Part shown: positions 23,973 to 51,700 of the stretch, piece after piece | Layout: every line of letters starts with the position of its first letter | Numbering within the stretch: position 1 is the stretch's first letter | NCBI GenBank assembly: GCA_905178155.1 | Contig: CAJINV010000002.1 | Coordinates: 6,118,476 to 6,182,475, forward strand | DNA: 64,000 nucleotides | DNA from: Amoebophrya sp. A120 | Taxonomy: Eukaryota > Protista > Dinoflagellata | Reading direction: 5' to 3' | Made by a program: the position numbers and the translations under genes | Notes under the pieces: generated by a model | What the model was told of the DNA's origin: nothing | The model's input: only the letters and a program-made list of their open reading frames with translations | The model's database searches: none

Positions 23973-26900
23973 CTATTTCTGCTCTTCCGAATAAAAAAGG
24001 TTTGCAAACTTCCTCACCAACAGTCCCTGCGTTCCGCTGACCGCTAAACTGCTACAAAACACCACAGGCCGTACGGACGCTATTCCTCGAAATTCTAGCA
24101 CATACGCCCAGAAAAGCCAATTCAAAACGCTGCAGCCGAAAGCTCCAAACACTGTGAAAAGGCTTATTGCGGAAGTTGTAGACTTTATTGATTTTCTACT
24201 CGTACGGGATCTTATATCAGATGAGGAGCGTCTTCTACTGTCCCTCGTCGGCTTCAGCAATATCAGATTTGGCAACACCAGAGGTAAAAACTGCATCCAC
24301 CAGAGAAAGTACTGCGCCGTACAGACCCGTATCAAATGCAAAAGTGTCTGGGTCTGGAATCAAAATCATGCTTGTCTGGCATGACAAAAAAGTTTGTGAT
24401 GCGTGTCCAAGAAGAGACCCTTTTTCCGTCATGCAAAAACGCAGTTTCTCATGCGAAAAACGCAACACAAAGAAGCGCAGATATTTCTCATGCTTGGCTG
24501 TGCAATACAGAGCATTCACTATTCCCAACACAGCATTACAAGTTTCCAGACCCAGACATTTTTGCATTTGATAACCCGGTTGGCCAGGACAAACACCAGG
24601 CTCTGGAGCAGCAAGGATTGATGCAACGTTTATCAAAATGAAAAATCCCCCCTCCCCATATCAAAACGGAAATTTGTGATGCTGCTTTGTGGCCACAAAT
24701 CAGCTTTGTATTGCAGAGAGTCACCGCGGCCAGATCCCCAGGCTAGGTAGGGGCGTATGGGTCTAGTAGTTCAGCATGGCAAGCGGCCCCCCTTTAGGCC
24801 CAGCAGCATGACAAATCGCTTCCATAATGGGGCGGAAGCTTCTGCCCTTGTCTTCTTGCAAGACAGATGTGATTTGTGACCTCAAATCCGCAATACAAAT
24901 TTTTGGAAACATACCTTTTCAATATGGCGAGGGGGGATTTTTCCTCTCAATAACGTTTCTTCTATCTTTGCTGCGCTGCTCCTGGGGTGTTTGCTTTCAT
25001 GCTCTTCGTCTGTATCGTCGCCTGAGGGGACTGCTGCAGCGTCTTGTTCTTGTCGCATTGGTCGTGCCAGTCTTTCCCGAGGTGAAGCTGTGCTGCCTGT
25101 AGACGCTGACAATGACGCAGCATTGCTCGTTCGTGTCTTCATCTTCGGGGTTTGCGACCTTTTTCTGTTTTTTCTCGCCAGGAGAGCGGCTGGACTTTTC
25201 GTTTGGACGCCGGCAGACTGCTTCTGAAGGGCCGTACTTCTACTTATTTTTCCACCGGAAACGGGAATACAATTAAACCGAAACATAATTTTCTGAAGCA
25301 AGCCCGCCCACTGGAGCTCCTGGTCGCGTGGTCCTAGCCACAAGTAAACGCCAGCAACGACCACCAAGGTTAACTGCAAACCTGTCGAAAACAAGCGTAA
25401 AACGAGGACCGTGGCGCTGCCACCGTCTTCTCCACCTCCTTCCCCCAGCAGTTTCGCAAACAGAAAAAAGTAGGGGGAAAAGTTGTGCTTCGTATCGATC
25501 CTGCGTCCATGGTGGAAAAACGCGGCATCCAAGTAGGCGTGTCCGAAGTAAGAGTAGGACAGCAGGGTTGGCAAAAGAAAACCGGTTGCGAAGCCACAGA
25601 GGGAAAGCAAGAGCTTTGCTCCGACTTTCGTCGTTTGGAAATAGCTCTGATTTCTCTTGCTGTTCCCGTACTTCATATCGTCGTGGGCTACTACGTGTTG
25701 AGCATCTGCATCTGGATCTGTACTATCGCTCCCCCGCCCTTCGTCTGCAAACGTGGCAGCTGAAGAAGATACGGCATCAAACCAAATCGCCAGCCCCAGC
25801 GGGACGATGTACACCACGGGGTATATCCGCATGTGCGTTGCAAGGCCCAAGACCCCCGCAGCAGCGACGCTGCGTTTTCGCGAAAAAAGCAAAAGCCCGA
25901 GAAACAGCAACAAGGAGGTGCAAACGTCGCAGCTACCTCGGGTACTGAGCGCAATGACCACCGGATTCCCAAGCCAGAGGAGGAAGGTGAGCTTGCCGAA
26001 CACAAGTTTTCCCACATGCTCGAGATTGTCGATCGCGGCAGTAGAGGTTGAAACCTGCGTAGTGCCGCGACCTGCCACGTTGCTGGGTGTAGTCGATGGG
26101 TTCTTGTACGAGCTGGTGGTTTGTTCGTGTGTTTCTCCTGCAATTACACGTTTATTTTTCCCCTCGGAAGTTGTTGTTTTCGTACCAGAACTAGAACTAG
26201 AAGTAGATTTCTGCATCAATAATTTCTCCAACAACCAGCCACAGGCTACGTCGGCAAGGACAAATAGAAGCTTCCCAAACCAGAGGGAGGATTCCTTGGA
26301 AGCAGCTGCGTCCCACCTCCAACCAAGGAACGCAGACGGAACAAACCGGATCCAATCAACATGGTTCCCCTGCAGCAGAACCGCTAGAATCGGGCTGTAG
26401 CGGTACTTTGTGTTCTCCTCGAGAAGCACCGGTCTGTTGTAACGCTCCGGCCTACTTTATGCATTGCAAATACCGATCTGGATGGTCTGGAACATGGTGC
26501 TGCGTCTGGCGTAGACAAACATCTGTCGTGTATCGTCAGCAAAAAGAAAATAAGCCGCGCCTTTTGTCATCCGAAGACAGAGTGCCTTTCTCCTCATGCA
26601 GGCTGGGTAAGGATAAGCAAGAGTCTCGCGATTCTTCCTCTTGTTATGCTCTGTGTGCTTTTTTCTTTCTAGACCTTCTTGCAGGAGAAAGCCGCACAAT
26701 GGATTGCAACTGTGTGCATTCTTCCCGACCCCGACATGATATAATTTGCAACGCATAGCCTTGATGCCGTTGATTTTACAGGGAGGTCGACGGGGTACCC
26801 GTAAGCCAGGCCCGTGTCATCGTATGGCGATTTTCCATCTATCAAAGCCCCAGCCGCGTCGGAAAAAACGAAGTAGTCAATGTCCGTGTAGGGGGTCTCG

Positions 26901-27463: not shown

Positions 27464-30400
27464 TCACAAGTCTGACCCGTTTTCCGAACTTCCCGCATCG
27501 CTGCTGCTGCCAAACGAGCTGTTTCGCAGCACGAGCGACAAGGCGCGGCGATTCTCCGAGCGGAACTTCTTTTCGCACACGACGTGCACGTCCAGGAGCA
27601 TCGCCGACTGCGTTTCCCGACACTGCTTGATCAGGTTTTGCGGTACGTAGAACTGCAGGCCCTTCTTGTTCGGTAGAATCTTCGACACCTCCGCGTACAC
27701 TGTTTGCCCCGTCCACTGGTATGCATTGCAAAAGTATCGTACTCGTATAAATGCATTACAAATTTCCTCAGCATGAGAGATAAAATCTGTAATGCGGATT
27801 AACCTTAAGAATGGGATTTGTAATGCATGATTGCAATACGAGTACGATACTTTTGCACAGGATAACTGGTCGGTGAAGGCGATTTTATCAAATGCAAAAA
27901 TGTCTGGGTCTGGAAAGTTGTGATGCTGAGTGGCGTAGCATGAGAAGGCCAAAAGTGCTGGCTCAGCATGACAAATTTCATCTGAGCTTATAGGTGTTGC
28001 CTATTCTGCATGACAACTTGCGTCTCCGCATGACAGAAAAGTGCGGCTCTTGGGTAACGTGCATGACAGATTTAAGAGTCATGCCAGAGAAGCATGACAA
28101 ACATGCACTCTCCCAGACCCAGACATTTTTAATACATTTGATAGATTTGGTACTGCTGCAAATCCGCCACGGGGTTGGCAGAAGTGTTCGTCTATCAAAT
28201 GCAAAAATGTCTGGGTCTGGAAGGATGCAAGGTTTGTCATGCACATTTTGCACGATTCCTGACGTCTGTGATGCATGCCCTAGCACCACTGATTTTGCGA
28301 GGGCTTCCTGATGCCTATACCGCATGAGAAATCTCTCGCCATGGCAAAAACTGGACCTCTTTTGCTGTTCATGCAATACAGATTTTTGTAGCATGCAAAT
28401 GCAGCATCACAAGTTACATCCTTCCAGACCCAGACATATTTGCAATGCATATCGTCGCCTGTTGCAGCTTCGAAGTCTCCAGCGTGATGAGCAACTTGTC
28501 CAGTTCCTTGCCCGCGCGCTCCATCACGTCCACGGTCGACGGATCCATCTTCTTCAGCCGCAGCTTCGGTAGGACCGGGAGTTCCCCCGCCGGGGTCTGG
28601 ACCATTGTGTACAGGATCAGCATCGGGTTGCGGCTGTTTGTCTCGCCGAAGATTTCCTCAATCATAGCAACATCGGGCTGCTTCAGCTCACCAGTCGTAG
28701 GATGCATCTGATTTTCGATGTGGATTCATTTTGGAATTTTTTTTGGCGCCGTAGAAAGACAAAGATAGTCATTGGAGCATCGCATACAGACACACGACAA
28801 CTGAGGGGCGCTACAGCTTAGAATGTTGAAAGTGGTCGATGTATTAAAAGCATCAGCTCAGCTCCTTGGTACAAAAAAGCAAGTAACTACTTATGTACCC
28901 ACTGCAGCTGCGTGACTGCGCACCCGACCCTCGATTGGCACAATTGGTCGAGTAGATAGAAGAAGTGTTTTTCCGAGGAAGATTGCGATAGCGGCAGCTG
29001 AAAGAACGCCTGCTCCTCCCGATCTACGCCGTTCAACACCTTCACGCTGAGCACGATATCGGGCTGCGGCTGCGGCGCGAATGGGTTTTTGCTCTGGTGC
29101 ACGACCGCGGGCGGAGGTTGTTGGGAAGGTTGACCGGTCGCGGACGGTGGTACCGCGCCTCCGACCCCAGAGGTGGACACCAGCAAGGCCGGCGGGGTTG
29201 CGGCCGTCGCGGCAGCTTTTGCGAGCATTTTCTGCTGTTGCTGTGCGGCGATGTTCGGTGGAATTTTGGACGCCGTCAAGGGCTTCGAACCCGGGCTCTG
29301 TAGCAGCTGCGAGGCCGCAGGGATTATGGACGAGGACGCGACTGCAGGAGCAGGAAGCCCGGCGGTGCCTAGCACCTGCGGAGGACCTTGCGGCGCGGAA
29401 GTCGACGACACTGCGGGTTGCAGTGTGGGGGTGAACTGCTGCTGCAGCATGTTCATCGGGACTTGCGGTGGCGGTCCAGGCCCCTGGTGGTGCCCGCCAG
29501 GTTGCAAAAGCAGCGTTGGGTTGGAAGCGGACCTGTTCAGCTGCGCGTGCTGCATTTGCTGTCCGGGAGCGGCTGGACCTCCTACTATGCTGTGCTGCAG
29601 TAGCTGCGGCGGCCCTGGCCCCCTGGAGGCTCCTGTTGCAGCTCCTGTAGGTCCCGCCGCTAATAGAGGCGGTGGACCACCTGCTCCTGCGCTACTCTTG
29701 TTATTTGTTGTTCCTAGGTTGTGCAATAAACTCTGCTGCGCCTGAGTGTGCTGTTGCTGCAAAATCTGCTGGCGATTTTGTGCAGCTGCTGCATTGGTCG
29801 TCGAGGACGAAGAAGACGACTGCGCTCTCGTCTGCTGCTGGTGCACCATTTGGATAGAAGTACTGATCGCCCCCGGCACGGATCCCGTCCGTTGCAACGG
29901 TTGTGGTACACCACCAGGAGTTGTCGTGCTGGACGACGTCCCCATTCCTCCACTGCTGGTTCTGCCCTTCAAGCGCTCGTGGAGCTGTTCCGCGACGTTC
30001 TGCGCTCGCGAGAGTTTGTTCTCGTACTGCGATTTCTCCTGTTCGTGCTGGTTCCGTTCCTCCTCTAGTTGTCCCTGGAGCTTTTTTAGCTCTTGAATCA
30101 AATACAAGTTCACGTTGGTCCCCGCTAAAGCCGGATTGTTGATGGAAGTCCCGATCTGTGAAGAACTCGCCGCGCCCCCGTCCTGGCCAGTAATGGATGC
30201 TGTAGTCGTACTAGAACTCGTCCCCACGACAGGGGGCACTGCTGCGTTAATGCTACCAGGACCTCCTCCAGAAGTAAGGAGACCTACCGCTGCGGCAGAT
30301 GTTGCCTGGTGCTGGTGTGGTCCGGGTATTGTTCCAGCTGGACCAGCAGCTCCCGGGGGAAGCATAAGATTCGCGCCTGTAGTTGTACTCGCCCCGGGTT

Positions 30401-33400
30401 TTGCTTTCCGCTGTTGCGTATTCAATGCAAAAGCAAAAGCATCGACACAATCGTAAAAATGCAAGTCTTGCATGATATGCAGATCCGCTTTTTTGTTTAC
30501 CTAAGCTAAGAAAGCAGCATTGGACATGGACTTGTAATGCTCTCAAATACTTACTAGTGATACGATACTTTTGCCATGCGTATTGTGGTGACGAGGCAGC
30601 GGAAGACACAGAGGAAGACGCCGGGAAGAGGTTGGTGCTGTTGCTTTCCCTCTTGCTGACATCAAATGCAAATTCGTGTCTGGGTCTGGAAAAGTGCACA
30701 GGCGTGTCACGTAGCTTCTGCACCATGCAGATGGCTGCCTGGAAGCATCACAGGTTTTCCGGCCGCGGCCGCTTCTCAATGTCGTATCATTATTCTGCAT
30801 GAGGAATCAATTCGCTGTTTGCGTGGCAAGAATTGGGAAAGAACAATATCTTGTGCAATCGCGAGTTAGCGTCAACACGAGTTTGCATTTTTCCAGACCC
30901 AGACACAATATCTTCCATGTCCATAGATATTCCTCATCGTCACTTGCTGTTGATGCAGCATCATCGGGGAGCTGACGTTTATCAAATGTAAAAATGTCTG
31001 GGTCTGGAAATATGCAACTTGTCATGCTAAATCTGAAGCATGCAAAAATCTGTGTTGCATGCTTACCAAAAGTCGCCCAGTTTTGACCAAGTCGGAAGGG
31101 AGTTTCTCATGCAGGATAGGCATGAGAGAGATCGCACAGAATCTGTCATGCTAGGTCCTGCATTCCAGGCCTCATGGGTCATGGAAAAGCTGCATGACAA
31201 GTCGCGCATTCTTCCAGACCCAGACATTTTTGCATTTGATAACGTTGCTGGAAGTCGTATTTGAAGATGCGTTAATGTTCTGTCCTATCCTGTGTAACAA
31301 CGTCCCCACCCCAGAGTCAAGATGGGGATTTTGCAACACAAACCTTGAAGTTTTGGGAACCACGCATGACAAATTGCAGGCTGTAGTGTAGTGCAGTTTA
31401 GCAAGGGAAGCCGCATAAGAAATCGATCTCCTTATGCTGTTTACAGCATTACAAGTTCCAAAACACGATTGAGAATGCCCCTCATGGGAGCGCGCATTAC
31501 CAACGCTCTTGTGCTTGCAGATCTGCATCACAACTCTGGGGTGGGGACGTTTTTACTCAGGATATGTCCGCTGCCAACCGCTGTTGCGTTCCCCAAGTGC
31601 GGACTGGCGGCCGACGCGGTCAAAGCTTATCAAATGCAAAAATGTCTGGGTCTGGAAGGCGGCAACCTGTCATGGTAAATCTGAAGTATGCAAAAATCTG
31701 TGTTGCATGAGTGCCAAAAGCTGTCCACTTTTGACCAAGTTAGAAGGGAGTTTCTCATGCAGGATAGGCATGGCAGAGACCTTGCAGAGTCTGTCATGCT
31801 AAGTCCCGCATTCCAGATCCCATGGGTCATGGAAAATCTGCATGACAAGTTTACACTTTTCCAGACCCAGACATTTTTGCACTTCATAGAGCTAGAGGAC
31901 TGCTTAAACTCGAGTTGTTGCTAGTATTGCGATGTGATGAGGATGACACAGCTGCGCTTCCTGCGATTTTCTTCTTCTTGCTTTTCTTCTGTTGTGGACC
32001 TCCAGATGGCGCAGAAGAATTGTTCAACATCATCCCTCCAGCTCCAGCTATGCTGCTTGCAGGCGTTGTGTTACTCGCAGCCGCTCCCAAATTACGATCG
32101 CCTATCATCTGCGACGAGGACGACTTGTTGATGTTGTCCCTCACATTTTCACTGCTGACGCTGCTCCCCTCATTGAACAAATCCTCGGTGGAAAAATCTA
32201 GATCGTAGTCGTCCAGCAGGCCCCTATCAGTAAACCGCAACTGCTCGTACGCAATACTCGCCTCCCCATCCGAGGAATTCTGGTCGTCGTCCATCAGATT
32301 TATGTCCTCAAGCATCATCGGATTGTTGCTTGTCCCGTCGTCGTTTGGCAAAATCCCTGTCGTGGTTGTCCCGAACGGCGACATCGCGCTGTTGCGTGTA
32401 TCAAATGCAAAAATGTCTGGGTCTGGAAGGATGCAAGGTTTGTCATGCACATTTTGCGGGACTCCTGGACCTGATGTCTGCGATGCATGCCCTAGCATCA
32501 CAGATGCTGTGAGGGCTTTCTGATGCCTATACCGCATGAGAAATGCCCTCTCGCCGTGGCCAAAACCAGACCTCTTTTGCTGTGCATGCAATACAGATTT
32601 TTGGATAATGCAGACGCAGCATCACAAGTTGCATTCTTCCAGACCCAGACATTTTTACGGTTGATAGCGTGCGTTATTGGGCAACATCATTAACTCCCCA
32701 GGGGGAGAGGTGCTGGAACTGCTGCTCATTAGTATGGATGTGTCAGGATTGAAATCGTCAAAGTTGAAATAGTTTGTCATGCATAAAATGCCAGGCATGA
32801 AATGCCTGCCTTGCCGGGATGGCAAGTGAGGCCGACTGTCAGCCTGTTTAGGGTTTGAAATAGAGCCGCTAAAGAAGTAGCATCACAAAAGCAGTCGTCT
32901 GTGCCCAAACAGCATGACAAATTGGACTCCGGTGCTCGGAGAATTTGTCATGCACGGCTTGGAAATTGGGCTTCCAACTGGTATCGATTTTATGCATTAC
33001 CAGTTATCTCAACTTTGACGATTTCAATCCTGACGCTTCCATAATTAGTCCACCTTGACTAGAGGACGTGTTGTTCACCAAACTCAGGGTGTTCTGTTGG
33101 TTCGTATGCATTGCAAAGCAAGTATCGCAGTACTATGAGAAATCGCATCACAAATTTCCTCAAATCTTCAGGCTCAAGGTTGAGGTTCTATCTAAAACAA
33201 ATGGCATTTGTAAAAAATGCGGAACTTGGTGAAAGGAAAAGCCGGATCTGCAGTGTTACTTCTGTGCTGCACTGCAAAAATCCTAGCCTACAGGTTGTAC
33301 CACGACACTTTTGCAATGTTGCATAGTTCGAGATGCTCGCCCACTCCAGGTCCACCACGCCCAGTTTCTGTAGCACGGCTTGCAAGTGGAATTTCAGGTG

Positions 33401-33823
33401 CGGGTTCTGTCCTTTCACCAAGGCTAGCTGCAACAACTCGCGCGCCTTCTGCTGGTGCTTGGCCGCTTGTTTCCGCTTACCCCTGCCGGACATCTCGATG
33501 GCCAGCTGCGCTTCTTTGATACCGGAGGAAACCAGCTCATCGACGGATTTGAACTGATTGGGGTTAGTGTTTTGACTGTTCCGGTTACTAATATTGTTCG
33601 CCGCTGTTAACCGGGAGGTCAAGGTCGCGCTGCGGGTCACGAGACCAGCACCCGGTCTTGTCCCAATAGTCTGCTGGTTTTGGTGGCCAGCGAGTGCTCC
33701 CCCGCCTTGTTCGAGCGCGATACCATCGTCGAAGTTTTGCCCCAAGTATTGATGCTCGGCCTCCTCGCCCGGCCGGAGCCGGCGCCGGACGCGGCGCTTC
33801 ACGTAGCTGACGCAGCCGCCCAT
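27464..33823 (-). CDS. ~1140-aa protein: MGGC N terminus, MIT-like helices, long Q/S/A/P low-complexity region, coiled coil; 11 introner introns plus GT-AG intron 28708-28898
   Basis: All junctions rejoin in frame (net 3423 nt); ELVSSGIKEAQLAIEMSGRGKRKQAAKHQQKARELLQLAL resembles MIT domains. Confidence 0.75.
27720..27864. mobile_element. Introner family B
   Basis: TIRs; perfect ACTGG repeat. Confidence 0.92.
27886..28143. mobile_element. Introner family A
   Basis: TIRs; perfect GATTT repeat. Confidence 0.92.
28193..28451. mobile_element. Introner family A (interior reversed relative to 6087 copy)
   Basis: TIRs; perfect TCGTC repeat. Confidence 0.92.
30419..30582. mobile_element. Degenerate introner family B
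   Basis: TATTCAATGCAAAAG...CGATACTTTTGCCATGCGTA; flanks TTGCG/TTGTG. Confidence 0.8.
30663..30925. mobile_element. Degenerate introner family A, left terminal TAT lost
   Basis: CAAATGCAAATTCGTGTCTGGGTCTGG...CCAGACCCAGACACAATATCTTCCATGTCCATA; flanks GACAT/GATAT. Confidence 0.75.
30980..31241. mobile_element. Introner family A
   Basis: TIRs; perfect ACGTT repeat. Confidence 0.92.
31286..31564. mobile_element. Introner family F
   Basis: TATCCTGTGTAACAACGTCCCCACCCCAGAG...CTCTGGGGTGGGGACGTTTTTACTCAGGATA; perfect TGTCC repeat. Confidence 0.9.
31628..31888. mobile_element. Introner family A
   Basis: TIRs; flanks AAGCT/GAGCT. Confidence 0.9.
32399..32666. mobile_element. Introner family A
   Basis: TIRs; perfect GCGTG repeat. 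Confidence 0.9.
32733..33043. mobile_element. Introner family D
   Basis: Long TIR TATGGA..GTCAGGATTGAAATCGTCAAAGTTGA; perfect ATTAG repeat; homologous to 51963-52270. Confidence 0.92.
33105..33325. mobile_element. Introner family B (divergent)
   Basis: TIRs; perfect GTTCG repeat. Confidence 0.85.
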
Positions 33824-35514
33824 GAAGAAACGTAGCTCTTTTCTTCAAGACGAACCGGCACTACACAGCCGACTTCCTGGGTAGTTCAACGGTGGACTAA
33901 GTGAAGACACAAGGACGTGCAAGAATTCCCGCTCCACTTTCTCTCGTCGTCCCTACTTTAGGTCCACACGTCACCTCTTCCTGCTTGCGGTCGCGCTCCG
34001 CAAAAATTGCGCGCTTTCATGAAGGTTCATTCCGTGCATCTGTGGTCGTGCGCGACCGGCGCGACCCTGTAGCTGCAGCTCTTGCCGAACAAGATCTTCT
34101 GCACTCACTGCTTGCCAAGAACATCGCGGCCCTACAACTTGAAGATGCCAAGCAAGTGGTGTTCTGCTCGTTCTTACCCCTACTTCCTGGTCCTGCTTTG
34201 TACTACCCGCATTGGTGATGTCGTCAGAAGCAAAAGCTGCCAAAGCTGCCATGGTGAAACAAAGCTATGAGTGTCAATGTTCTTTTAAAGAGAACTACTA
34301 AACTGCGCTCGAACGAGACTCGACGACGTGACCTGCCGGAAATCAGGGAAGAACTACAGGAAGACTTCGTTTGCAAACAAGAGCGCACCGTCGAGAAGAA
34401 AAAACTAGGACCACCACGACCGCACTGGGGCAACGGGACACGGAAACAAACCAGTCTCGTTCTTACGATCATCCAGTCTCGTGCCTACTTGACACGCGAC
34501 GGACTGCGCTCTCCACGATGTCGTCCCTGTCCGCAACAAGAAGTTCTGCAAAATTATAAAACGCTTCAAGTTCTTAAATCACTGGAAGAACTAATGGGTC
34601 CTCGTACATTCCCTTTCATATTTCCAAATTGAATACAGAGCCTTCTCGTCGTCGTCGAGGAGGCGATACCGATACGGATACGTGGACGAAAAGGAGGATG
34701 TTGATTTGTCAGACATAATAGTAAACGATTTTTCAGGAAAATAAGAACATCGCGAGGGAGTGAGTAAGTACTTATCCGCAGCGCAAATCCACCCACCTTG
34801 GGCGCTGTCTACCACGGCCACTGCCAGTGTAGGATAGTTTTCTTACGAGACCACACCTGGATGTCAGCCTGAAGCTCTCGTGTCACAGAATCCAGGGAAA
34901 GCGAAAGAACTTGTTTGCCTTGTTCTATAGTGCCTGTACAGGATACGCATGGGGGCTACCCACTTTGGTTTTCGTGTAAAGCAGAAAACATTCAGCCTCT
35001 GATTGGCCTGTCAGCTAATTTTACGCCCTGGCTACCGCCACAAGCGAAATCGAGCCGTCTTTGGTAAAATAAATTGATGCCAAAAAATTCACATAGCCTA
35101 CTCCTCGAAGCTGTTTGGTAACAAGACCGGAGCACACGCACTCGCACATAGCTTCTTTGCAAGTCTTTGTACATTTCGATGCAAAGCTACAGTTTTCTTA
35201 CCGTCTTCGACACAGACTAGGGGCACTCAACGTTTTGACTGCAAGAAAATAAAAACGGGGGGGAACGAAAAAGTTAAATTTGAGCTAGTATAGATCCGCT
35301 AACTACGCCAAAACCTCCTAGAAGGTGATGGCACAACCCTAGATGGCTCGATGCGAGCAAAGCGGTTCTGTAAAATTTGAATTTCGTTGTGACAACATTC
35401 ATACATTTGGTGCTGCCTCAGACAGACCGCTTATTTGCTCCTACTAGGTTCGCGTAATTATTACAAACGTGGCGCTTGCATGTCATCAAGGAGCCACATC
35501 ATATCTGAATCTGC

Positions 35515-37335: not shown

Positions 37336-37387
37336 TCTCAATCTGCAGTGAAAATCATCTCTACTCTCAATCTGCAGTGAAAATCAT
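37336..37387 (+). repeat. Tandem duplication of TCTCAATCTGCAGTGAAAATCAT
   Basis: Identical 23-mers at 37336 and 37365. Confidence 0.85.
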
Positions 37388-38742: not shown

Positions 38743-39711
38743 TTTGATGCTAGGAAGTGTTCTGGTCTTTCTTTCGTAAGAATAAAGAAAAGCAGAAAAA
38801 CGATCCAATGAGGATAGGGTGTAGGTAGTAAAAAATCTAAACCTAGTTTAGACAAAATTCAGCAACCTGAAGGCGGAAAGGGCCAAATTCTGTTCGCGTA
38901 GTCGATTTGACTCTGAGAGAAGCAGGCACAATACGCGGCAGAGGCCGGCAATAATATTGAGATCTTATCTTTGTGCCCGTGTGAGAAACGCGCAGGTCGA
39001 AAACCTTCCATTTGATGAACCAGCTGGGACCAAAACTTTGAATAAGGGAAAGACAAAAGGAGTTTTTAATTCTCATCCTCTTCATTTCATCATATGCATA
39101 ATCATGCATGATGTCACATCATGCCCGATCACTAGGGTAATGTTAAGCAGAGATCTTCATCCTTTCATCATGTTCATCTTGATGCTGATCTGCTCAGCCG
39201 ATATAGTGATCTCGGAAGAACAGAAAGGCAGAGAGTGTCCGAAAGACGGCTTCGTTCTTTCCAGCACTGAGTTGTACTTTTCTATATGAAGATGGATATC
39301 AGAAAGTCTCTGTGTCGTTCGCTTGTCTTGTCATGTTTTTTTATGAATGTCGATGTCATGATGTTGTTGTACTTCATTTGCATGTCGTCAAAAAGAATCC
39401 TCCACAACTTCCCCATCTCGAATAACAGTCGTCCCTCTCCCCAGTACTAACCCAATCCCGAGTGATGATTTTCGTCGCCATCGGTAGGTGGAATGCTTAC
39501 GCTTACCACAACCTAAGCACACTTTTACGCTTTTCGTCGCCGCTTTGCAGTGGAGCCTGATTTTAGTACAAATTTAGTTCAGCCCCGGTCAAATAAGCAT
39601 TTCTCCTTGTAAGAACAAAAAAAACGCATGAATTTCAAAATAAACAAAACAGCCAAATCCAAATCTACAACCCGATAAAAGACACTCAACGCCATTAATT
39701 CATGTTTTTTT

Positions 39712-42700
39712 TCAAAGAAAAGTTTCATATTTACCTGCAGCAGCCTTCGGCGCGCTCGCTCCTCCTGCAGCAGTGCTGCTGCTCTGCGCTGGTGCATTCT
39801 TGCCTTTCACAGAGCTGCTGCCAGCACCTTGAAAAATAGCCTGTTGATCGTCTTCTGCTGTTTGCTGTTCCCCAGTTATTTTCGTGCCATCGTCTGCAGG
39901 TTCTTCTTGTCCTCGTTTAACGATCCGTGCTGAGGATGATGGTCCTGCGTTATTCTGCTTCGACGATTTGTTCAACATGAAGCCGGCATCTTCGCCAGCA
40001 CGTGCACGGCTCTTCCGTTTCTCAATCTTCTTTGTGCTTCGATCTCGATTTTCACCACTCAAAACTTCTTTTTCATGTTCCTCAAGAAGGGCAGGCGGTT
40101 TTTTGTTGTTCATTTTTGGCTTCTTGCAACTCTTTGCTTTGTTCGTGTGTTGTCCTTCTCCATCTTCGTTTTGTACTTCTACACCTTTAACTTTGTGATC
40201 TCCGGCTGTATTCATCGTACTATCGTGAGCCTCCTTTTGTTGCTTCAGATGCAGCGGCTCCTTGGTAGAAAAACTACTACTGCCTTGTTGCTGATTCTCC
40301 TCTTTCTCGTTTTTGTTCTTCCGCCCAGCAGCTGCTGCAGTGCTCCTCCTTTTGTTATTGTTGTGCGGAAGTAGATTCTTCATCAAGTCTGGTGACTTAA
40401 TCACCATCGGAGAATCGTTCACCTCCAACGAGTTTGCGGGAGAGGGCGGAAAGCAAGAGCTCTTTCCGTCTTCTTGTTGTTCCCCTTGTGCGGTAGCGGT
40501 TCTCTCTTTGTCATCAGTTTTAACAACTTTTTTCTCGTTGCCTTCGTTAATATTTTCAGTCGTACTATTTTGATTTGTGCCAGGACCACGCTGTTCGACG
40601 ATACCCGCCTCCTGAGGCTTCGCTAGCACTGACGACTGATGTGCTTGTTCATCTGGTGCCGTCGTAGAAAGGTTGTTCTGCTGCAGCTGACTGGTACGAG
40701 AATTACTAATATCAAAATCCGCGGGAACAAGTGCAGAAATTCCTCCCTCTTCAACTTCATCTTGCGCCGCAGCAGGCGCAAAATCTCCTCCAGCGCTGCT
40801 GTTTATTCTCTCGACCCCTTCACGACCTCCCGACGATTCCACTGCATTGGTTTGGTCGTGGTCTCCACTCCCAGCGCCCGCAGAATCGTCTGCGCGCTCC
40901 TGATCTAGTGCCCCCTCCTGCTCTTCTTCTACGTTGTCCGCGTTGTCGTGGGTACCTCCTACACGTAGATGTACTGCTTCTGCCCCCAAGGTAGCTCCTG
41001 CAGCCGGTTCAAGCGGCAACTGCATCGAAATAGCTTGTGTGTTTTGGTTTTCGTCGATACTCCTTCCAACTGCATGAACTCCGACTCTCCCTGAAGGTGG
41101 TCCCAGCGGGTCATCGTTTGCTTCCGCCAGCATCTTGTCGGGCGGAAAGTTGATATCGTTCGTCGTGTAGGTCGTAGTGCTCGGCGGCGGCAGCATCTGA
41201 CCAGCTGCACTATCATTGATGCTTCCCTCGAGGACGTCCCCAAGACGATTACTGCTGTTCCCTTCGATGTCAATCATCAGCTCCCTGCTCCTTCCTTCCG
41301 CCACTTGACGCCTTGCTTCCCTATCCCTACCGCGGGGGTCATTCCGCGTTGTATTATACTCAGCCAACAAAACCCCATGGCTCTTGTCCTGGTCTTCCTC
41401 ATCCTCCTTGCTCGCCCACCGATGCCCTTGCATGTGCCCGCGCATGTTCTCCTCCTCCATAATTTCCTTACTGTATTCCGCTGTTTCCGGCCAGCCCATC
41501 TGCAGTCCCGCGTATTTGAACGCATAACTCAAAAAAGCGTCGTACTCGATACTACCGTATGGGATGGTGACCTCTGGCTCCTTCGGATCAAAAAATTCTA
41601 TCAGCCACCTCTTGTGGCTCGGCGCGTCAGCGATGGAGCCGTGCTGGTGCACCAACCGCGTTTCCCACAACCGGTGCTCCACCGGTCGATGCTTGGTCGG
41701 GTCCTTCTGCGGACTAGCTTCGTCTTCCAACATCGGATCGCCGTCGTGCGGCGGGGATGAACTTGGGTTTTGATTGTCCTCCACTTGGCCGGACGGTGAC
41801 GGTTCTTGTGCAGCAGAGTTGTTGTTGGCAGTATTGTTGTTAGTTTGTTGATTTTTACCCTGCAGCGACGTAGAGTTGTGAAGGTCCTCTTGGTGTTGAT
41901 AATTCGCTTCTAAAAAGCTGGTGTCCTCCAGAACTTGTGGCTGGAACGCGGTGTGTGGGAAAGGGAGAAGAGGCCTGGGCTCGATGATCACAGGAGGTTC
42001 CTGTTCAGAAGGCTCCTGTTCAGAAGGTTCCTGCTCAGAAGGCTCCTGTTCCTGTAGCAGGGCCGCGGCATTTAATATTTTCTGCTCTTTTTCTTGCTGC
42101 GGTTCTTGATCGCGAATCTGCTTGAGCTCCGGTTCTTCTGGGCTCAACGCGTCGGGGGTAACATGATCAAGTTGCCTTAGCTCGTACTCTTTCGCGACGA
42201 CGGACTGCTGCTCCGGTTGAAGAAGAAGATGCACATCAAGGTGGCTATTACACTGGTCGTCGAGTACATGCACAGTCGTGTTCATCTTGCAGTCTTCCAC
42301 AATATCGTCGAATAAAGTCTTGTTGCAGTCTTCCTCTTGTTCGCCTGTGGATTGCATAGTTGGTTGATGGTCCACCGCGGACAAAACATCCTCCATGACC
42401 GTGAACTTCTTCACATCTTCTACGCCAACAAAGGGTCTTTCCCTTTCAGAGGAGGACTCCGACTCTCCGACGAGAAATAAATCTTCCTCGCCATCGTCCG
42501 CAGGCGGACTCTCGTCCGCCGTAGTGCTCCTACTCTCAATCCCAGGATCATCTTCACCTTTGCAAGGCGACACACTGATGTCGTGGTCCTTTGTCGCATC
42601 AATGCTTGGCCGGCGACCCTGAAGACCCTCCTCCGAATAATTACTGTCGGTGTCGTCCTCCTCTGGGCTACTTTCGCTTTCCAAAGCAGCGAGTTCGTAG

Positions 42701-45700
42701 TTCGCCAAATTCAGATCGCTCGCGGCGGCGCAGGTGGGCACGTTCGCGATATCGAGAGGCTCCAAATCCTCCTGGCCGTCGCGGCATCGGGGCTTGACAC
42801 ATGTTGGCAGCAATTCTTTTTCTAAGCCTATTCTCAATGGCGGCTGGAAGCTCGTGAAAGTTTTGCTCATCCACGGGCAGGTTGCAGGCTGGTCCGGCTG
42901 TAGCTTCGGTTCTTCATGTCGAGCTACACATTCGAATTCGTGTTCGTGTACAGGTGTCGCTACAACTTTGGGGACGGAGATACCAACGGGATCTTGTTGC
43001 TGCGACACCAGAGTTGTCGTGCAAGAAGACAAAATCGGCACTGGGATTGGAGGATCACTGTCCTTGTCGAGTCCTGTCAGGCCGCTGGGGTCTAAGGCAG
43101 AACTGTTTTTCATCGCGTGGCTAGCCTTGATGTTCTGCTCTTTCGGTTGCTCACCTTGATGCCACAGATCGTTTCTCTTCTTGAATTGTTCGAAATGACT
43201 TCGCGCTTCAGCTACCTCCGGTCGCAATGTTGACCGATTGAAACGACAAGCAGAGTCATCAACATCGTCGTTCGTGGTTGAGTCAAGATCCGAATCGCTA
43301 TCATCCGACGACGAATCGGACGACCACGGCGCGGCAGCTGTAGCTCCAGGTAGCGCAAAAGCAGCGTCGCGGTCCTCTTCAAATCTTATCGCAGAAGTTG
43401 TTTTTGCATTTAACGCGGCTCCTTGAAGTTGTCCTAAAAATCGAGGGGGCCGCTCAATGTAGTTGTCCATCCGGGCAGGTCGGTTTTTGCTGTCAGGAAT
43501 TATTATCTGTGGTAGTTCTGTGACCCGTTTTTCACAAGTCTCCTCTTTCTCAACGTGGTCCTTTGCGAGGTTTTCATCGGCATCTTCGTCGGATGAAAAG
43601 TAACTGCTGACCGAGCTGCTGTCTTCCTCGGACGAACACGACGAAGAGTCGCTGCTGACCGAGCTGCTGCTCTCATGAGATGAAAAGTCGCTGCTGTCTT
43701 CATCGGAAAGGTCTTCCTGAAGCGTCAGCGTGTCCTCAACATTGTCGATGTTCATTTTCAGAGCCATCTTCTTGTTCTTCTCGACATCACTACTAATTTT
43801 ATCCTGCTCGTCCCCCTCGTTCTTGTGTTCCATCAAGGCCGCCGCGGCCCGTCTTTGCTCTGCAGCGTCACCGGCTTTTCTTCTCTTCTGCTCCCGCTCC
43901 TCACCACTGTTCATGTTCTCATCTTTTTCGCTGCTTTTTCTACTTCCACACCCATCATCCCTGTCCTTGCCACCTCGATCGCCCTCGTCCTCGTTTTCAT
44001 CCCCGCCCGGGTTAGATTTGTCATTTCCGCCTTTTTTATCGCTGTCTGGATGCTGTCGTTGATCCTTCCCCTCGCTGTTGTCTGGCTCTGGTCCGTGGTT
44101 GTTCCCTTTATCTTCGTCCCCAGCACCAGAAGGAGGACCACCAGGACCAGCTCCGGCTCCGCCGGAGTTGTTATCATCTGGCGCATGATCGTTATCATCC
44201 TGATCCTCATCGTCCGAACTTGTACCGTCTGAAAAGTCATCGTCGAAATCATCATAAAACTCGCTGTCTCCGTCCTCCCGGGTGGCGCCGTCCTCCGGCC
44301 ACAGGTTCGTGTACATCGCGTCTCGGTCGATCCCGTGCTCCATCAGAAACTTGATCTCAAAAGCATTCCGCTCACTCGCCTGCGGCAAGCCTGCGGGTAA
44401 AATTGCGCCGTGCTGCAGCAGCCACTGCACCGCGGCGTCGTTGTTCTCCTCGATGGCATGGAGAATCGGGGTGTAGCAAAAATGCTCCGACCGGTCGATT
44501 TGATTCACGAGAAACAGCTGTGCTTTCGTGAACTTTTTTTTCGCTTCTTCTGCGTGGTTGACGGTGGGAATGCCTGCGTGTTCCTCTCCTGCTGCTCCCT
44601 CGATTCCGTTCTGACCGTTCTCTTGAAAATCACCAGGTCGAGGTCCACCTCCTCGTGCATTAATGTCGTGGAAAGTTGCTTTATTCTGCTCTTTACTCCT
44701 ACCATTTGTCAAGTTCTTCGGGGTCTCGAACCCGAAGTAATTGGCCGCAAGACGCTGTTGGAACGTCTGTTCGTGCTGCTGGGTGAGGAAATCCTTCACT
44801 TTCTGTTCCACCGCCACCTTCTCGCATTCCTCGTCGGAGGAAACTGGTTCTTCCTTGATTCTAATCATACTCGGATCCTCGTTGTCTTGATCTTGCAGTT
44901 CTACTCCTGCTGCCTGTTCTTGCACTGGTTCATCAACGAGGACTCCTGCCGATAGTACTTGTTTTGGTGCCCCTGCTCGTGCTGATTCTCCTTGCAGTGA
45001 TTGGGATTGCTTTGCTCCTTTGTTCATCTCTCCTTCGACTTCGACTCCCACTATCCCACGAAAAAACTGTTTCACTGTGATGATTTTGCAAGATCTGCAT
45101 CACAAGTTTGTTACACATGACACTGAAAATTTGTCATGCGCGCTGCCCAAGGGAAAACACGCTTGAAAATCCAATGTCTTGCAGGTCTAGCAAGACAAAT
45201 AGTTCTGTGTTCCATTTTTCTGCATCACAAGTTCACAGTGAAACAGTTTTTTCTTGCGATACCCACCTCGGCAGCTTTAATCCGAGTCGTGTTTCTCCGC
45301 TTCTCCTCCTGTTCCATCGCCACCTGCTTCTTCAACTTTTTTACATCCCGGTCCAGAAGCAAAGGCAGCCCGGCGCGGTATTTGTAGATGAGTTCCAAGG
45401 TGTCCGGGCTCAGCAGCCACTCGTCGCAGGGCCATTCCAGATCCGTTTCCTTTTCCATCACGGTGATGGGCTCGAAGCCGAACGTGTGAATCGTGGTTGC
45501 CGCGTTCGTTCGGATCCCGCCGCAGGGGCCAATGAGGCACTTCTTCATGTCGTCCGGAGGGAGCAGAGGCGGGGTGAGGACGCGGTCCCGATCCTCGTAC
45601 TGCTGCTCCCCTTTTTGATTCCGTCCGCAGAAGTCGAACAAATACTGCATAACTTCCACCGCATCCTTTTCCACGGCATGAAAGAAACAAGATCGCCCCG

Positions 45701-48700
45701 TTTGGTGATCGAGCCTGAAGAGTTCCAAATTTTCCTCCTCCAAGAGCCACTTCACAGCCGCCACGCACTTCTTCCTGGATTTCAGGTTCCGACTGCTGTT
45801 GTAAAAATTCTCCATCTTCCGGCTGTCGACACAAAGATAGTAATTCAGCTCCCGCACCACCATGTGCAGCAAAGTTCCGCCCTTCATGCCCGGAACGGAG
45901 CCGACCAGCGGCGGCGCGCCGATGGACAGATTCTTCAGGTTGTCAAACAGTTTCACCGGCCGTTCCAAGTTGGTGGAGCTTGGCAGAGCAGTTTTCAACG
46001 ATAGCAGCCCGTCCTTCAGCTCCGTCAGGAACGAGTTGTCGTCGTAATTGAATTTTTTCTTTTTTTCTGGTCTTTTGTTCAACATCACTGGGCGGAGCTC
46101 CAGTTCCCCGTTGCTGGGATGCTGTTGGTGATGATCCGGTCCAGCGATCATAGAGTTGTTATCCTGGTGCCCTTTTGGTTGTGATTCGACAGAGCAGGAC
46201 CTTTTCCGATTATGATTCGCCGGTAGTTGTTTCTTTCTCCTTTTCGCCCCTCCTCCAGACGTGTTCCGGGAGGAGCAAACCGACGCCTTCGCGTTCTTGT
46301 TGTGCGAGCCGCTTTTCAATAATGTAGAACTAGAAGAACCTCCAGCCGCTTCTATATCGATGTCCATTGGCGTCGACGTGTGGTCGACCAGTAAAATGCT
46401 TTTGTCCATCATCCAGTCAGCCTCGGTTGTTTGCTGCTCCGGCGAACTGCTCTTACTGCATTTTGTGCTGCTGTTGTAAAAGTTTTCGACGTTACCAACA
46501 TCTCTTCTAGAAGTTTTTGTCGTCGTGGTCATGAATCTCCTCCCTTCCGAATAGTAGTCAAGAATTTTTTTCCGTGCCGTGTCCCAAATCTGCGGCAACT
46601 CGTGCTCCAGCAGGGCGTGCAGGTCGGAGACGTAGCACTTCCCGATCGTTTTCTCGTTTTGGTCCAGAGTCGCGAGAAAATCGTTGCACTTCCCTTCCTT
46701 CTATGCATTGCAAAAGTATCGCACTAGTAGAAATTGCATCACAAATTTTTTCAAGAAGAAATAAAATGAAATTTGTAAATGCTATTTCACCTAAAAGGGG
46801 ATATTTGTCATGCACGATAGCAATTACTTACTACGAGTACGATACTTTTGCACAGGATACCTTCTTCGCCGGCGGGTGCCGGTTCTGCGCCAGAGTCCAG
46901 ACCGCGTTGGATAGGACCAACTTCACGATGTATGCATTGCAAATATGTCTGGGGCTGGAAGATTGCCAGGCTTGTCATGCATATTTTGCATGACCCATGA
47001 TGTCTGTGATGCATGCTCTAGCATCACAGATTTTTGGAGGGCTTTGCGATGCCTCTACCGCATGAGAAATGTCCCCTCCGCGTAGGCCAAACTGGAGTTC
47101 TCTTGCTGCTCATGCAATACAGATTTTTTTAGAATCCAGAGACAGCATCACAAGTTTAGAATCTTCCAGACCTAGACATATTTGCATTTCATACGATGCC
47201 CTCCAACCCGATTTCACCCGTGATCCCGAAGTCTCGGGGGATGAAAAAATTCCCGGAACCCAGGTTGATCAAGGACCGCAACGCGGAAAAAACCGGCGTC
47301 GCGCCGTCGGGAGCGCGGTAGTTGATGTTCATTTCCTTCAGCAGGGCGGAGATTTTCGCCAGATGGGCCTTCTTATCAAATGTAAAAATGTCTGGGTCTG
47401 GAAGAATGCACGTTTGTCATGCTTGTTTCGCATGACTCCTAAATCTGTCATGCACAGTACCCAAGAGACCCATTTTTCTGTCATGCAGAAACGCAGTATG
47501 TCATGCAGAATAGGCAACACCTAGAAGCTCAGAAACTTGTCATGCTGAGCCAGCATTTGTAGCCTCATCATGAGACGCCACCCAGCATCACAAGTTTCCA
47601 GACCCAGACACTTTTACATTTGATACTTCTGCGGGTAAAACCGCTCGTCGTCGTGGAGTGGAAGGTAGTGCTATGCAAGAAAAAAACTGTGTAAGTGTAA
47701 ATTTGTGTTGCAGAACATGCAACAGAGTTACGCCTGTCATGCCAGACAGCCGTGAAGTCCTCTTTTCACGTGTGTTTTCCCTTACAAGCCACGCATGACA
47801 GGTTTTCTCTGTCATGTAGAGCAAATTTGTGATGCTGTTTCTCAAAGAAAGTTACACTTACACACTTTTTTTCCTGGATAAGTGCTTGTTTTGCTGCACA
47901 AGAACTCCTAGTTGCTTTGCCGCCGCAGTTGTAGATGAGTTTATTTCGCCCCCACCAGGTGCTGCTGGTGCAAGAACCCCTCCTACAACTCTTGAAGTAG
48001 AAGTAGCCGTCACATGATTCCGAGGGCTTACCTGATTCGTCGTCACCCAGGCGTTGGCTGCGACCATGGCTTTGTCGTTCGTGTTGCAAGGAAAAATCCC
48101 CCCTCCCCATATTGAAAACGCATCCGTCAGAAAATTCGTCATGCAGATTTGTGACCACAAATCGGGTCTGCCTTGCAAGGAGGCCCAGTCAGGCTGTCCG
48201 CCAAGTTATGCAGGCGATTTGTAATGCTGTAAGGCCTACAGGGTAGCCGTCTACCATGCTAGGCGCATACACCAAAAGGCCCCCACCTAGGCTCAGGATC
48301 TGCGTGCATTCCTCTACTGCAACACAAATTTGATTTGTGTATCCAATTCCAGCATCAGAAGTTTCGTTTTGATATGGGGAGGGGGGATTTTTCCTTTTGA
48401 TAGTTCGGTCTCCAGCACTTGAACAACAGCTCCGGCTCGAAGCGCTGGACCCCGTGGAACAGCGTCCAGTGCAGGACCGGGAAGTGCATCGTGTGGCCGA
48501 ACTGCACCATCGCGATATGCATTGCAAATATGTCTGGGTCTGGAAGGTTGCAACTTGTGACGCTGTCCTTGGATTCCAAAAAAATCTGTGTTGCATGACT
48601 AGCAAGAGGAGCCCAGTTTCTTCTACACGGAGAGGGCATTTCTCATGCGGATTACGCATAAGGAAGCCCCCTAAAAATCTGCGATGCTAGGCCATGCCTC

Positions 48701-51700
48701 ACAGGCGTCACATGTCCTACAAAATATGCATGACAAACCTGGCACTCTTCCAGACCCAGACATTTTTGCACTTGATAGGCGAAGCTGGTATACAAATCTT
48801 GCGTCGGAAACGCCTTCAGCAGCCACTTCAAATGGTACCATTTACACACGTATGGATTGCAAAAATGTCTGGGTCTGGAAACTTGTAATGCTAAAAGTGA
48901 ATGGGAGACGCACTGCAATACGCAGCTATGCATGACAAACTTTTTGGCTCCCATGTCTTACGTATTCCGCATGGCAAGCTGCGTTTTTGCATGACAGGTA
49001 AGAGGGCCTCTTCGTGCCTATGCAACACAGATTCTCGAGTCATGCCAGACAAGCATGACAAACTTGCATTCTTCCAGACCCAGACATAATTTTTGCATTT
49101 GATAACACGTGAAACGCGGGCAGGCACACCGTCGCAATCTGCTGGTTGAACGCCTTTTTCCAGGTCGTCATCACCTGTTTGTAGTCGCTCACGGTGCACT
49201 TCTCCTTCTGCTCACAAGAAGTTGTTGTACTGTTCAACATCCCGGATGACGAGCTCTTGTTGTTCCCGGCGCTCGTCGTCCCTGTGGTTTGGAAATGCCC
49301 AAGCGCGGTCTGTTCCTCGATCACTTGGTCCACGTTGCTCGCGAAAAACATCACCCGGGTCGGCTCCACCTGGAAGGTCACCGGATTCACGTATCAAGTG
49401 CAAATATGTCTGGGTCTGGAAATTTGTGATGCAAGAAAGATTATAGTGAGCACACTGCAATGCGCAGCCCAGCATGACAAGTTTTTCCGTGGTTCTGCGT
49501 TGCGTACTCCGTATGAGAAACTGCATTTTTGCATGACAGGCAACAGGAGCTCTTCGTGGCCACGCAATACAGATTTCAGAGTCATACCAGATCAGCATGG
49601 CAAATCTCGGAATCTTCCAGACCCAGACATATTTGCATTCCATATCACGGTCTGCCACGCAAAATTCTCCGCGTGATTCTGCGCCGTCGCGTTCGCAGAC
49701 CGGGTCCGCTTCAAAGGTGGTGTCAAAGGTAAAAATGTCTGGGTCTGGAAACTTGTGATGCTGGGTGGCGTCTCATGATGAGGCTACAAATGCTGGCTCA
49801 GCATGACAAGTTTCTGAGCTCCTAGGGCTAGGTGTTGCCTATTCTGCATGACAAACACAATCACAAACTGCGTTCCTGCATGACAGAAAAATGGAGCGCT
49901 TGTGTAACGTGCATGACAGATTTAAGAGTCATGCCAGACAAGCATGAAAAACATGAATTCTTCCAGACCCAGACATTTTTACACTTGATAGGTGGCTGGG
50001 ATAGTTTATTCGAGGTCCCGGCAGCCCCATAATTTGCAATCAAGGCCTGATTTGATGATGCAGCTCCAGCTGTTGTTCCCGCCGCTTCAAGTAGCCCATA
50101 ATTCGGGTACAGCGGATTCGACGCCGCCAAGTACCGCACCTTGCACAGATCCGGCGCTTTCACGAGCAACAGCTTGTATCGGTCGACCGAGAGAGATTGC
50201 CCGTTAGAGATGTGAGCGGAGAAAATCGTTTTTAGGTTCCCCGGCGAATCCGTCACATCGAACAACCGCAACAGCATCCGGTTCAAGAAAGCGATCAAGT
50301 GCAAGCAACTTTTGCTGTAGTCCTCCTTCCGAAAAAACTTGCACGCAAACAGAGGCACCAGCCGCTGCGCCTCCGGCAGGACATAGTCGGAAATGTTGGT
50401 CTCGGGGTACTTAAACTTCGAGGGGAAAATCCCCGATCTCGTGCTCGGCAAGCCGCAGAGACAAGTCGCCCGGTCGGTGGGGAGCTGGGACGGGTTGTCG
50501 TAAGTGTTGTTGTAGCGGTAACAGTGCTTCCTGCGGCGCTTCCGCGCCTGTTGTAGCTGGGTTCTCCGCTGCTCCTCCAATTGCTCTTCGGTAAGTAGCT
50601 GGTCATCTCCGGCGGTGATCTTGAAATCTTCAACGCTTTTGTAGTTGCTTTTCGTATTTCTATCACCTGCCTGCCCTGATGAACACGACGACGTGGACCG
50701 CCCCATTGCATTCATCGGCGGAGAGCTCTCCGGGGCGGAAGCAGGAGATGAAGCAGCACTAGAAGAATTTTCCTTCCTCACAGTGCTCCTGTGCCCACAC
50801 TCGTTTTCGTCCAGAAAAAGCTGCGTCACCTCCTGCCACAGCTTTTTTCCGAACTCCGAGTCTGGGCAGTACTCGTTCGGCAAGTAATAATCTTTCGATC
50901 TGTAGTCCGCAACTTCGTCTTTACTCATCATGTGAAAGAGTTTGAAGTTCTCCCCGCTCTGCGTGGGTGGCATTTCGTGCTGGAGCAAAATCGTGAACAG
51001 TAGCCGCTTCTGATCCACTCCGAACCTTCCATCGGACACGACTGTGGTGCTCTTCGGGAGCTGGCTGTTGGTAGTTGCGGAAGCGGAGCTGCCGCTACTG
51101 AGCTCCATCTGGTCGGCGAAGGATGAAGAAGATGTATTTGCAATCATTTTCACTGCGTCAGCACCCGCACCAGCATTGTTCATCATTTTTGCGTTTTTCC
51201 TGTTCACTTCCTTGTTGTGCTTCGCCAGGAGCAGCTTCGCGACGTTTTGCAGATTGTTATTGCAGTAAATGGTTTCGTGCGCCACCTTCAAATCATGCTC
51301 GATCATCGGTTTCAAGAGAAGGAGAAACGCCTGCTCGCGAATTTTCTTCCGCTTTTCCAGTGCATTCTCGTCCGAGAGAGTTTCGTTCTCGTCGGTGCCG
51401 TCCGGGTTCCGGAATTCCCCGAAAAAATGAAGCAGCTGGTAGAAATCCGGCCACCTGTTGTCGTGGGGTTTTTGTGTTCTTGTAGTCGATCATTTACAAG
51501 GGAGTTGCCGCAGCATCAGGCTTCTAAGTATGTAATCTACTGACGCCCGCAGCTCTTGTCTCTCATCCGCACAGACATGAAGAACGAGAGTGCACATCAA
51601 TCACATGAAGTAAAAAAGTACTTACGCCAACAAGGTGCGAGGACCACGGTTCACTGTCAATATGTCAAACCCACATGTTGAGAGAACAACAAGCAGGCCA

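Follow-up and report, generated by a model that had tools for sequence, protein, structure and literature searches.

The closest described system is that of Amoebophrya A120 itself, whose non-canonical introns carry inverted repeats made up of TAT, seven variable bases and at least three A (Farhat et al., PMC7789003). In that account they are about 240–260 nt long, lie in co-oriented genes and are flanked by direct repeats of 3–5 nt (5 bp in the legend of Fig. S19), and they combine non-canonical ends and inverted repeats of 8–20 nt with splice positions that vary relative to the hairpin. Gozashti et al. (2025; PMC12130899), in the 22 of 58 A120 rows available, class most families as TIR DNA transposons, with lengths that include 149, 252–261 and 305 nt; their duplications span 2 to 5 bp, the splice sites are mixed and the filter demanded similarity in the same orientation. 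Roy et al. (bioRxiv 10.1101/2020.10.14.339549; see also PMC10228655) report introners in either orientation from Aureococcus anophagefferens and from several classes of Polarella glacialis (6, 8, 10 and others), and Polarella class 12 shows a 5-nt duplication and an NNAGG frame. These introners need G[T/C/A] and AG, and thus only some target sites work. Finally, euglenid nonconventional introns have a pyrimidine/purine junction consensus and form circles, and the MITE-derived introns of Fritillaria favour AG-AC/AT (PMC11282704).

We focus here on 64,000 nucleotides of Amoebophrya sp. A120 (contig CAJINV010000002.1; the window), which hold 37 elements of 145–322 nt whose inverted ends read TAT...ATA and whose target duplication is 5 bp long. 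These are very likely the published introner elements of A120. They share the motif, the length of about 240–260 nt, the direct repeats (a 3–5 nt direct repeat is present here as well), the co-oriented genes and the non-canonical ends with the introns of PMC7789003, and the TIR transposon class and the lengths with the families of PMC12130899. What differs is a duplication constant at 5 bp, against 2–5 bp in the available rows of PMC12130899, together with inverted repeats of about 30 bp, both orientations, a single cutting register and empty alleles; element orientation and a fixed register are not treated in the available text of PMC7789003. The intron class is already described, and the fixed register is likely to be a new rule. 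As in Polarella and Aureococcus, DNA transposons make introns in both orientations, and the class 12 frame equals the register found here; those introners, however, show orientation bias, whereas here any target serves and the largest family is unbiased. Inverted ends, duplication-like junction repeats and non-canonical borders are shared with euglenids and Fritillaria, yet the border biases of neither are seen: no pyrimidine/purine junction consensus shows, and the composition of the duplication is near that of the flanking background.

Element anatomy and the host gene

All 37 elements lie in minus-strand frames, and GC is about 50%. A search by end profile plus duplication returned 31 candidates in the window and 0–2 in each of 10 shuffles. 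The duplication is perfect at 5 bp in 23 of the 32 first-listed window elements and at 3, 4 or 6–9 bp in none; 171 of 210 end pairs in a related assembly, picked without using the duplication, also have it at 5 bp. The end profile fits TAT followed by seven variable nucleotides and at least three A, and TAT, G9 and AAA11–13 are invariant. The elements form families with copies repeated across the genome, and intron lengths are spread evenly modulo 3 (52/45/53). Terminal inverted repeats, a fixed insertion-made duplication and a short non-coding body are all features of MITEs, and the elements are likely to be non-autonomous DNA transposons. No match was found in viral contigs.

The gene at the centre of the analysis becomes one open frame when its ten elements are removed, each with 5 nt; other removal lengths break the frame. 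Its features, compared with the orthologous gene of the related assembly (L055), are as follows (F and R denote orientation).

39712..51489, minus strand, host gene, one frame of 3091 codons once the ten elements, and 5 nt with each, are taken out
45052..45261, family D element, RNA joint 45046>45262, absent from L055
46702..46859, short family B element, RNA joint 46696>46860
46931..47193, A1 element, R, duplication CGATG, removal required by the frame, present in L055 in the same orientation
47374..47625, A2 element, F, duplication CTTCT, removal required by the frame, L055 site empty
47672..47880, family D element, opposite to 45052, removal required by the frame, common to L055 and 100% identical
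48082..48402, family C element, opposite to 24631, removal required by the frame, L055 site empty
48516..48777, A1 element, F, RNA joint 48511>48779, imperfect duplication CGCGA/GGCGA, L055 empty site CGCGA
48851..49104, A2 element, R, RNA joint 48845>49105, L055 site empty
49392..49644, A2 element, R, RNA joint 49386>49645, common to L055
49721..49990, A2 element, R, RNA joint 49714>49990, reverse partner of 47374, L055 site empty

Pfam gave a single sub-threshold ankyrin match for the host protein, and its first exon had no homologue at E<=0.001 among proteins of 873–2490 aa, a length range that makes this weak evidence.

An earlier note had proposed that the same element is tolerated in both orientations within one gene. 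The opposite orientation holds for all three pairs that it named; the identity does not, the members belonging only to the same family at 76–86% identity. Whole-element global identity is 86% reversed against 58% forward for 47374/49721 (92.5% without gaps), 81% against 61% for 46931/48516 and 76% against 65% for 28193/30980. The interiors alone, without the outer 35 nt on either side, give local scores, reverse against forward, of 282/28, 230/40 and 161/51, respectively; they align only in reverse, and the pairing is thus not caused by the symmetric ends. The 34-mer quoted as an element end is in fact found at 47566 and its reverse complement at 49747, both set back by 26 nt from the element end, and the two quoted 19-mers are at 47111 and 48580. 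The third pair is in a second gene, to which both of its members belong and which carries A1 both ways (F at 30980 and 31628, R at 28193 and 32399).

27464..33844, minus strand, second gene, 1146 codons, eleven elements and one canonical intron (acceptor at 28708 picked by frame)

Removal from RNA

The RNA contigs pass over F as well as R elements, even inside a single transcript. They likewise skip the canonical GT-AG introns 19551>20249 and 38030>38318, and are therefore spliced RNA; the evidence consists of assembled contigs from one sample. Joints are found for F elements (19088, 21027 and 48516) and for R elements (22893, 32399, 48851, 49392 and 49721), and all 18 single-element joints listed skip the element plus 5 nt. 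One contig of the X4 set, spanning 34337–28899, has exactly the exon length expected if all eight elements are removed, A1 in F and R included. Among the joints listed there are none for 46931, 47374, 47672 and 48082, which lie in a low-cover part of the host gene. The raw RNA runs X9–X11 gave 12, 1 and 1 reads, at element ends only.

A hairpin combined with a short direct repeat is a known recipe for template-switch artefacts. Since these elements combine a hairpin with short flanking direct repeats, the joints could be reverse-transcriptase template switches, with no real splicing. We consider this very improbable, given that the 3091-codon frame needs exact removal, that intron lengths are spread evenly modulo 3, that the spliced form is the same as the empty allele, and that removal stays exact even where the duplication is poor (20477 by its joint, 30660 by length).

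Movement as DNA

In the orthologous gene five sites are cleanly empty, and three insertions occur there alone. Its empty sites carry one copy of the 5-mer, and these alleles match the spliced form; they represent recent gains or losses between close relatives. At the 45052 site the orthologue has 3 extra bases, and a 95% identical copy lies about 600 nt away, which may reflect a local hop. Relative to the host gene, orientation in the three large families is 26:27, 18:8 and 17:9, the first ratio being that of the largest family. Family B had appeared to occur in one orientation only (5/5 in the window), a pattern rejected by a ratio of 12:9 in the related assembly. There is no clear proto-splice bias of the target sites.

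That the elements move as DNA, as previously proposed, is well supported by the 5-bp duplications, the empty sites and the near-even orientation. The other route, reverse splicing of excised intron RNA, would draw on the fact that the elements are introns and exist as excised RNA. It is, however, contradicted by antisense copies and near-even orientation, by empty sites that hold a single 5-mer, and by the outer 1 + 4 nt of each copy, which come from its own target site and not from the donor copy; we find it scarcely credible.

A probable fixed register

All 18 joints permit only one register in common, with the 5′ cut 1 nt upstream of TAT and the 3′ cut 4 nt downstream of ATA (register 1). 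Two further elements matter here.

21027..21288, A1 element, F, in a CobW-like gene, RNA joint 21021>21289 in contigs of the X2, X3 and X4 sets
26458..26757, degenerate family A element in a PIG-M-like gene, X4 contig piece ending at 26453

The imperfect duplication of 48516 places the cut at least 1 nt before the element, that of 21027 at most 1 nt before it, and the contig-piece end at 26453 alone yields the 1/4 register. These three elements, all F or weakly F, provide the tight constraint; for the R orientation it comes from 22893 only and is loose. All nine informative elements permit register 1, with a chance under uniform cuts of 0.004, or 0.04 without the two contig-piece-end elements, the register having been picked afterwards and the values left uncorrected. 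The cut could instead vary within the 5-bp duplication, the single register then being a chance outcome among few informative junctions: where a duplication is perfect, as most are, the position of the cut is masked, and Farhat et al. (PMC7789003) call the splice sites variable. The agreement of the nine elements speaks against such variation, which we regard as improbable. In a separate look at stop codons in 28 elements with imperfect duplications, the lone apparent stop (21027) was out of the coding frame.

The earlier note had called the removal signals strand-symmetric. The ends are indeed symmetric, being statistically indistinguishable in transcript orientation, with no sense-versus-antisense motif bias left after correction; the cut, on the other hand, is polar, 1 nt outside at the 5′ side and 4 nt outside at the 3′ side.

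Splice signals and mechanism

Conventional U2 introns have a GT/GC donor, an AG acceptor and a branch consensus, which these elements do not show. At register 1, GT-AG occurs in 5 of 150, about as expected from the separate counts (44 GT, 20 AG), and at the remaining registers in 0–6 of 150. Through its duplication, 46702..46859 has the canonical GT-AG ends if cut at register 1. Neither G at +1 nor a terminal AG is enriched (n=150). TACTAAC was found in 0/150, and YTRAY-type motifs near the 3′ end in 15/150 sense and 22/150 antisense; a degenerate branch is possible. With no dinucleotide or branch enrichment, nothing here shows spliceosomal chemistry. The internal motif GCATNAC was tried as a two-way branch site and is unsupported: its most frequent spacing is 31 nt, and it lies within 60 nt of the end in only 1 of 17 family B copies of the commoner orientation, yet such copies are spliced. 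The contrast drawn earlier with the spliceosome is nonetheless unproven, as the either-orientation introns of Polarella and Aureococcus use ordinary spliceosomal splice sites.

We favour, at a probability of roughly 0.55, short inverted-end transposons in coding exons that a relaxed spliceosome would remove by cutting at a constant distance from the element ends. A transposase encoded elsewhere would insert the elements without regard to strand, and the RNA machinery would read the end motif, identical in either orientation of the element. The cut 1 nt before TAT would make TA(T) donor positions +2 to +4, leaving +1 free, and the 3′ cut 4 nt after ATA may be set by distance from paired or protein-bound ends rather than by AG. 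Offsets of 1 and 4 add up to 5, and the original coding sequence is thus restored exactly. The spliceosomal route is favoured by the equality of the register with the NNAGG frame of Polarella class 12, by the three canonical introns examined here, which begin GTA, and by the spliceosome proteins, of which Farhat et al. (PMC7789003) found nearly all, though not U1.

The same transposons might, on the other hand, be removed with no spliceosome at all, by a nuclease that makes a staggered cut next to the terminal stem of 30 bp, after which a ligase joins the exons, a route proposed for the nonconventional introns of euglenids. Such a machine would make a fixed 1/4 cut at transposon ends, whatever the strand or the junction letters. 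In either orientation the elements are predicted to form a stem of some 30 bp (z −8.6 and −7.6), which would join the ends as in euglenid introns; in these, too, the overhang beyond the stem is longer on the 3′ than on the 5′ side, and excision yields circles (PMC11282704), and the missing dinucleotide and branch signals fit as well. The RNA itself shows no sign of selection for the hairpin: on the sense strand, G-U and A-C mismatches in the stem number 107 and 93, respectively (p 0.36), more than half of the copies are unpaired at repeat positions 4 and 7, and the two ends do not covary at positions 4–10. The earlier proposal that the TIR hairpin is the RNA removal signal is thus unproven. 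Furthermore, the invariant letters resemble a sequence motif, and the register matches the frame of a spliceosomal introner. We therefore hold this explanation to be possible, though unlikely.

Implications

The paper that describes these non-canonical introns leaves the manner of their removal open, and a fixed register would offer a handle on the mechanism. A single register would replace highly variable splice sites by one rule, would show where lariat or circle junctions should lie, and would allow gene models to be corrected without RNA. A non-spliceosomal machine, if that doubtful case were true, would silence at the RNA level every insertion, of whatever family, that has these ends, a general tolerance for tens of thousands of exon insertions. 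If the fixed register holds, insertions would do no harm whatever their site or orientation, which would account for the scale of the invasion in A120; introners that depend on their target for GT and AG differ in this respect.

Elements of both orientations within one gene

The earlier note held that one element is tolerated in both orientations within a single gene. This observation is correct: the words it quoted are found, and its three pairs match in reverse along their entire length (86%, 81% and 76% identity, as against 58–65% forward), the trimmed interiors likewise being reverse partners. The opposed orientation thus stands, whereas the identity of the copies does not, since they are non-identical members of a family. 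In the window, this family (A) is split 9:8 between the two orientations (F and R), with no pair inconsistent with the split.

Elements of family A in the window, named by start position
Orientation F (n = 9): 6087, 19088, 21027, 24330, 30980, 31628, 47374, 48516, 62137
Orientation R (n = 8): 22893, 27886, 28193, 32399, 46931, 48851, 49392, 49721

Opposed copies also occur in two further families (24631/48082 and 45052/47672).

Element anatomy and host frames

Thirty-seven elements of 145–322 nt were curated in the window, nearly all starting with TAT, with G at position 9 and AAA at 11–13, and with the reverse complement at the far end. Among the first 32 listed, a flanking 5-bp duplication is perfect in 23 and matches at 4/5 positions in 7, and duplications of 3, 4 or 6–9 fit at none. 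All 37 lie in minus-strand frames. Excising ten elements (45052–49990), each with 5 nt, gives a single frame of 3091 codons, which is broken if 3, 4, 6 or 7 nt are taken with any one of them; removing element + 5 also restores adjacent genes, including CobW-like, PIG-M-like and cyclophilin genes.

Across the whole window the mendable long frames are all on the minus strand, like dinoflagellate co-oriented gene blocks. Long, low-complexity coding stretches at 39712–45051, 54779–59473 and 12210–16013 are element-poor (none found); elsewhere there is one element per 300–400 nt, and insertions seem clustered. GC-rich intergenic patches (66–68%) lie at 11001–12000, which includes a 94-nt imperfect inverted repeat (11754–11847), and at 17001–18000.

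Removal from RNA

The RNA evidence consists of assembled contigs from four runs (X1–X4) of one sample, which skip two canonical GT-AG introns and therefore represent spliced RNA. Joints are displayed for 6 of the 11 elements in 44900–52600; in 18900–38850, among the joints listed, at least 12 of 23 elements have a single joint and two more share a double joint flanking a 16-nt exon. Within family A, displayed joints cover both orientations, F (19088, 21027, 48516) and R (22893, 32399, 48851, 49392, 49721), those of 48516 and 48851 having equal depth and side length, as one contig would give. Furthermore, an X4 contig has 840 letters separating its pieces at 33326 and 30413, where excising seven elements leaves 1111; the surplus of 271 equals, by arithmetic with which the reading frame agrees, an eighth element (30660–30925) plus 5. 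This length match implies that 32399 (R), 31628 (F) and 30980 (F) were removed within one transcript contig. For 46931 and 47374, which have no joint among those displayed, the evidence is the reading frame, together with an empty allele for 47374.

The 16-nt exon (27865–27885), which has an element on either side, is retained exactly in contigs of three runs. Old elements whose ends and duplications have decayed, at 30660–30925 (duplication 2/5 matching) and 26458–26757 (3/5), are still apparently removed exactly.

An apparent common cut register

The skipped length is exactly element + 5 in 18/18 displayed single-element joints, and imperfect duplications, which reveal the copy that stays in the mRNA, allow the cut to be placed relative to the element ends. 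The cut lies at least 1 nt before 48516, at most 1 nt before 21027 and at most 2 nt before 20477 and 22247, so that 1 is the single value compatible with all four. A contig piece that ends at 26453 yields register 1 on its own, as read from the piece end rather than from a listed joint. Read along the transcript, the intron consists of a single base, then the element, then four bases. If cuts fell uniformly, nine informative elements would all permit register 1 with a probability of 0.004 (0.04 if the two taken from piece ends are dropped), both values uncorrected for post hoc choice of the register. The tightly constraining elements are all F-type; R copies bound the register loosely. At register 1, 46702 is an ordinary GT-AG intron, and GT-AG occurs in 5/150 elements, matching chance expectation.

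Movement as DNA

The note's proposal that the elements move as DNA is well supported. A scan of metagenome contigs for the end sequence of family A gave at least 167 stretches; among the matches listed, 166 loci are all in one related assembly, JACKZZ01. One locus, L055, is the orthologue of the gene at 39712–51489 (exon pieces 92–100% identical). In L055 the sites of 47374, 48082, 48516, 48851 and 49721 are cleanly empty; four elements are in common with the window, orientation kept, and three insertions are its own. Across JACKZZ01, a perfect 5-bp duplication flanks 171/210 end pairs picked without using the duplication. Host strand was called for 114/299 elements by a caller correct on 34/36 window elements, its training set; orientation relative to host in the three large families, these 36 included, is 26:27, 18:8 and 17:9, with no significant skew (p 1.0, 0.08, 0.17).

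Identity of the common elements is uneven (47672 100%, 49392 97%, 46702 93%, 46931 <86%), for which gene conversion, replacement or patchy haplotypes are options. Element 45052–45261 is missing at its L055 site, where three extra bases occur, and a similarly oriented copy of 95% identity lies ~600 nt off, at L055 5138–5346, with a new duplication. A local cut-and-paste hop with a footprint is possible, though only suggestive, next-best copies being 93% identical.

Signals and removal mechanism

In transcript orientation, no difference between the two element ends was detectable; when the sense 3′ region was compared with its antisense counterpart, none of the short words showed a difference that survived correction (lowest p 0.0015 in 875 tests), and both strands have few branch consensus words. 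Folding predicts a terminal stem of ~30 bp for both orientations. In the 128/150 elements with well-aligned ends, G-U and A-C mismatches are about equally frequent (107:93), more than half of the copies leave positions 4 and 7 unpaired, and no covariation between the ends is seen at positions 4–10; covariation at 11–28, in one of three families only, could be explained by subfamily structure.

Copies of the internal motif GCATNACA and of its complement recur 31 nt apart (93 nt is also seen), are directed inward from both ends and are common to families whose end sequences differ; the 31-nt spacing would fit protein binding sites on DNA. Canonical introns at 19554–20250, 28708–28898 and 38033–38319 have A-rich, not pyrimidine-rich, 3′ ends.

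We favour removal by a relaxed spliceosome, in which the end motif would stand in for positions +2 to +4 of the donor site, with distance setting the 3′ cut. First, one spliceosomal introner frame in Polarella has this register. Second, the three canonical introns examined begin GTA. Third, the paper that described the A120 introners (Farhat et al. 2021, PMC7789003) reports that the spliceosome is nearly complete but lacks U1. Removal by a nuclease and a ligase instead is a less likely alternative.

Relation to known introners

The introner system itself is already known: window elements share every testable feature of the A120 introners of PMC7789003, Amoebophrya being the likely host, most such families are already classed as TIR DNA transposons by Gozashti et al. 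2025 (PMC12130899), and either-orientation introners are known in other systems. Within the openly accessible passages searched, neither an orientation balance nor a fixed register is described for Amoebophrya elements. The register would be one rule, likely new and testable.
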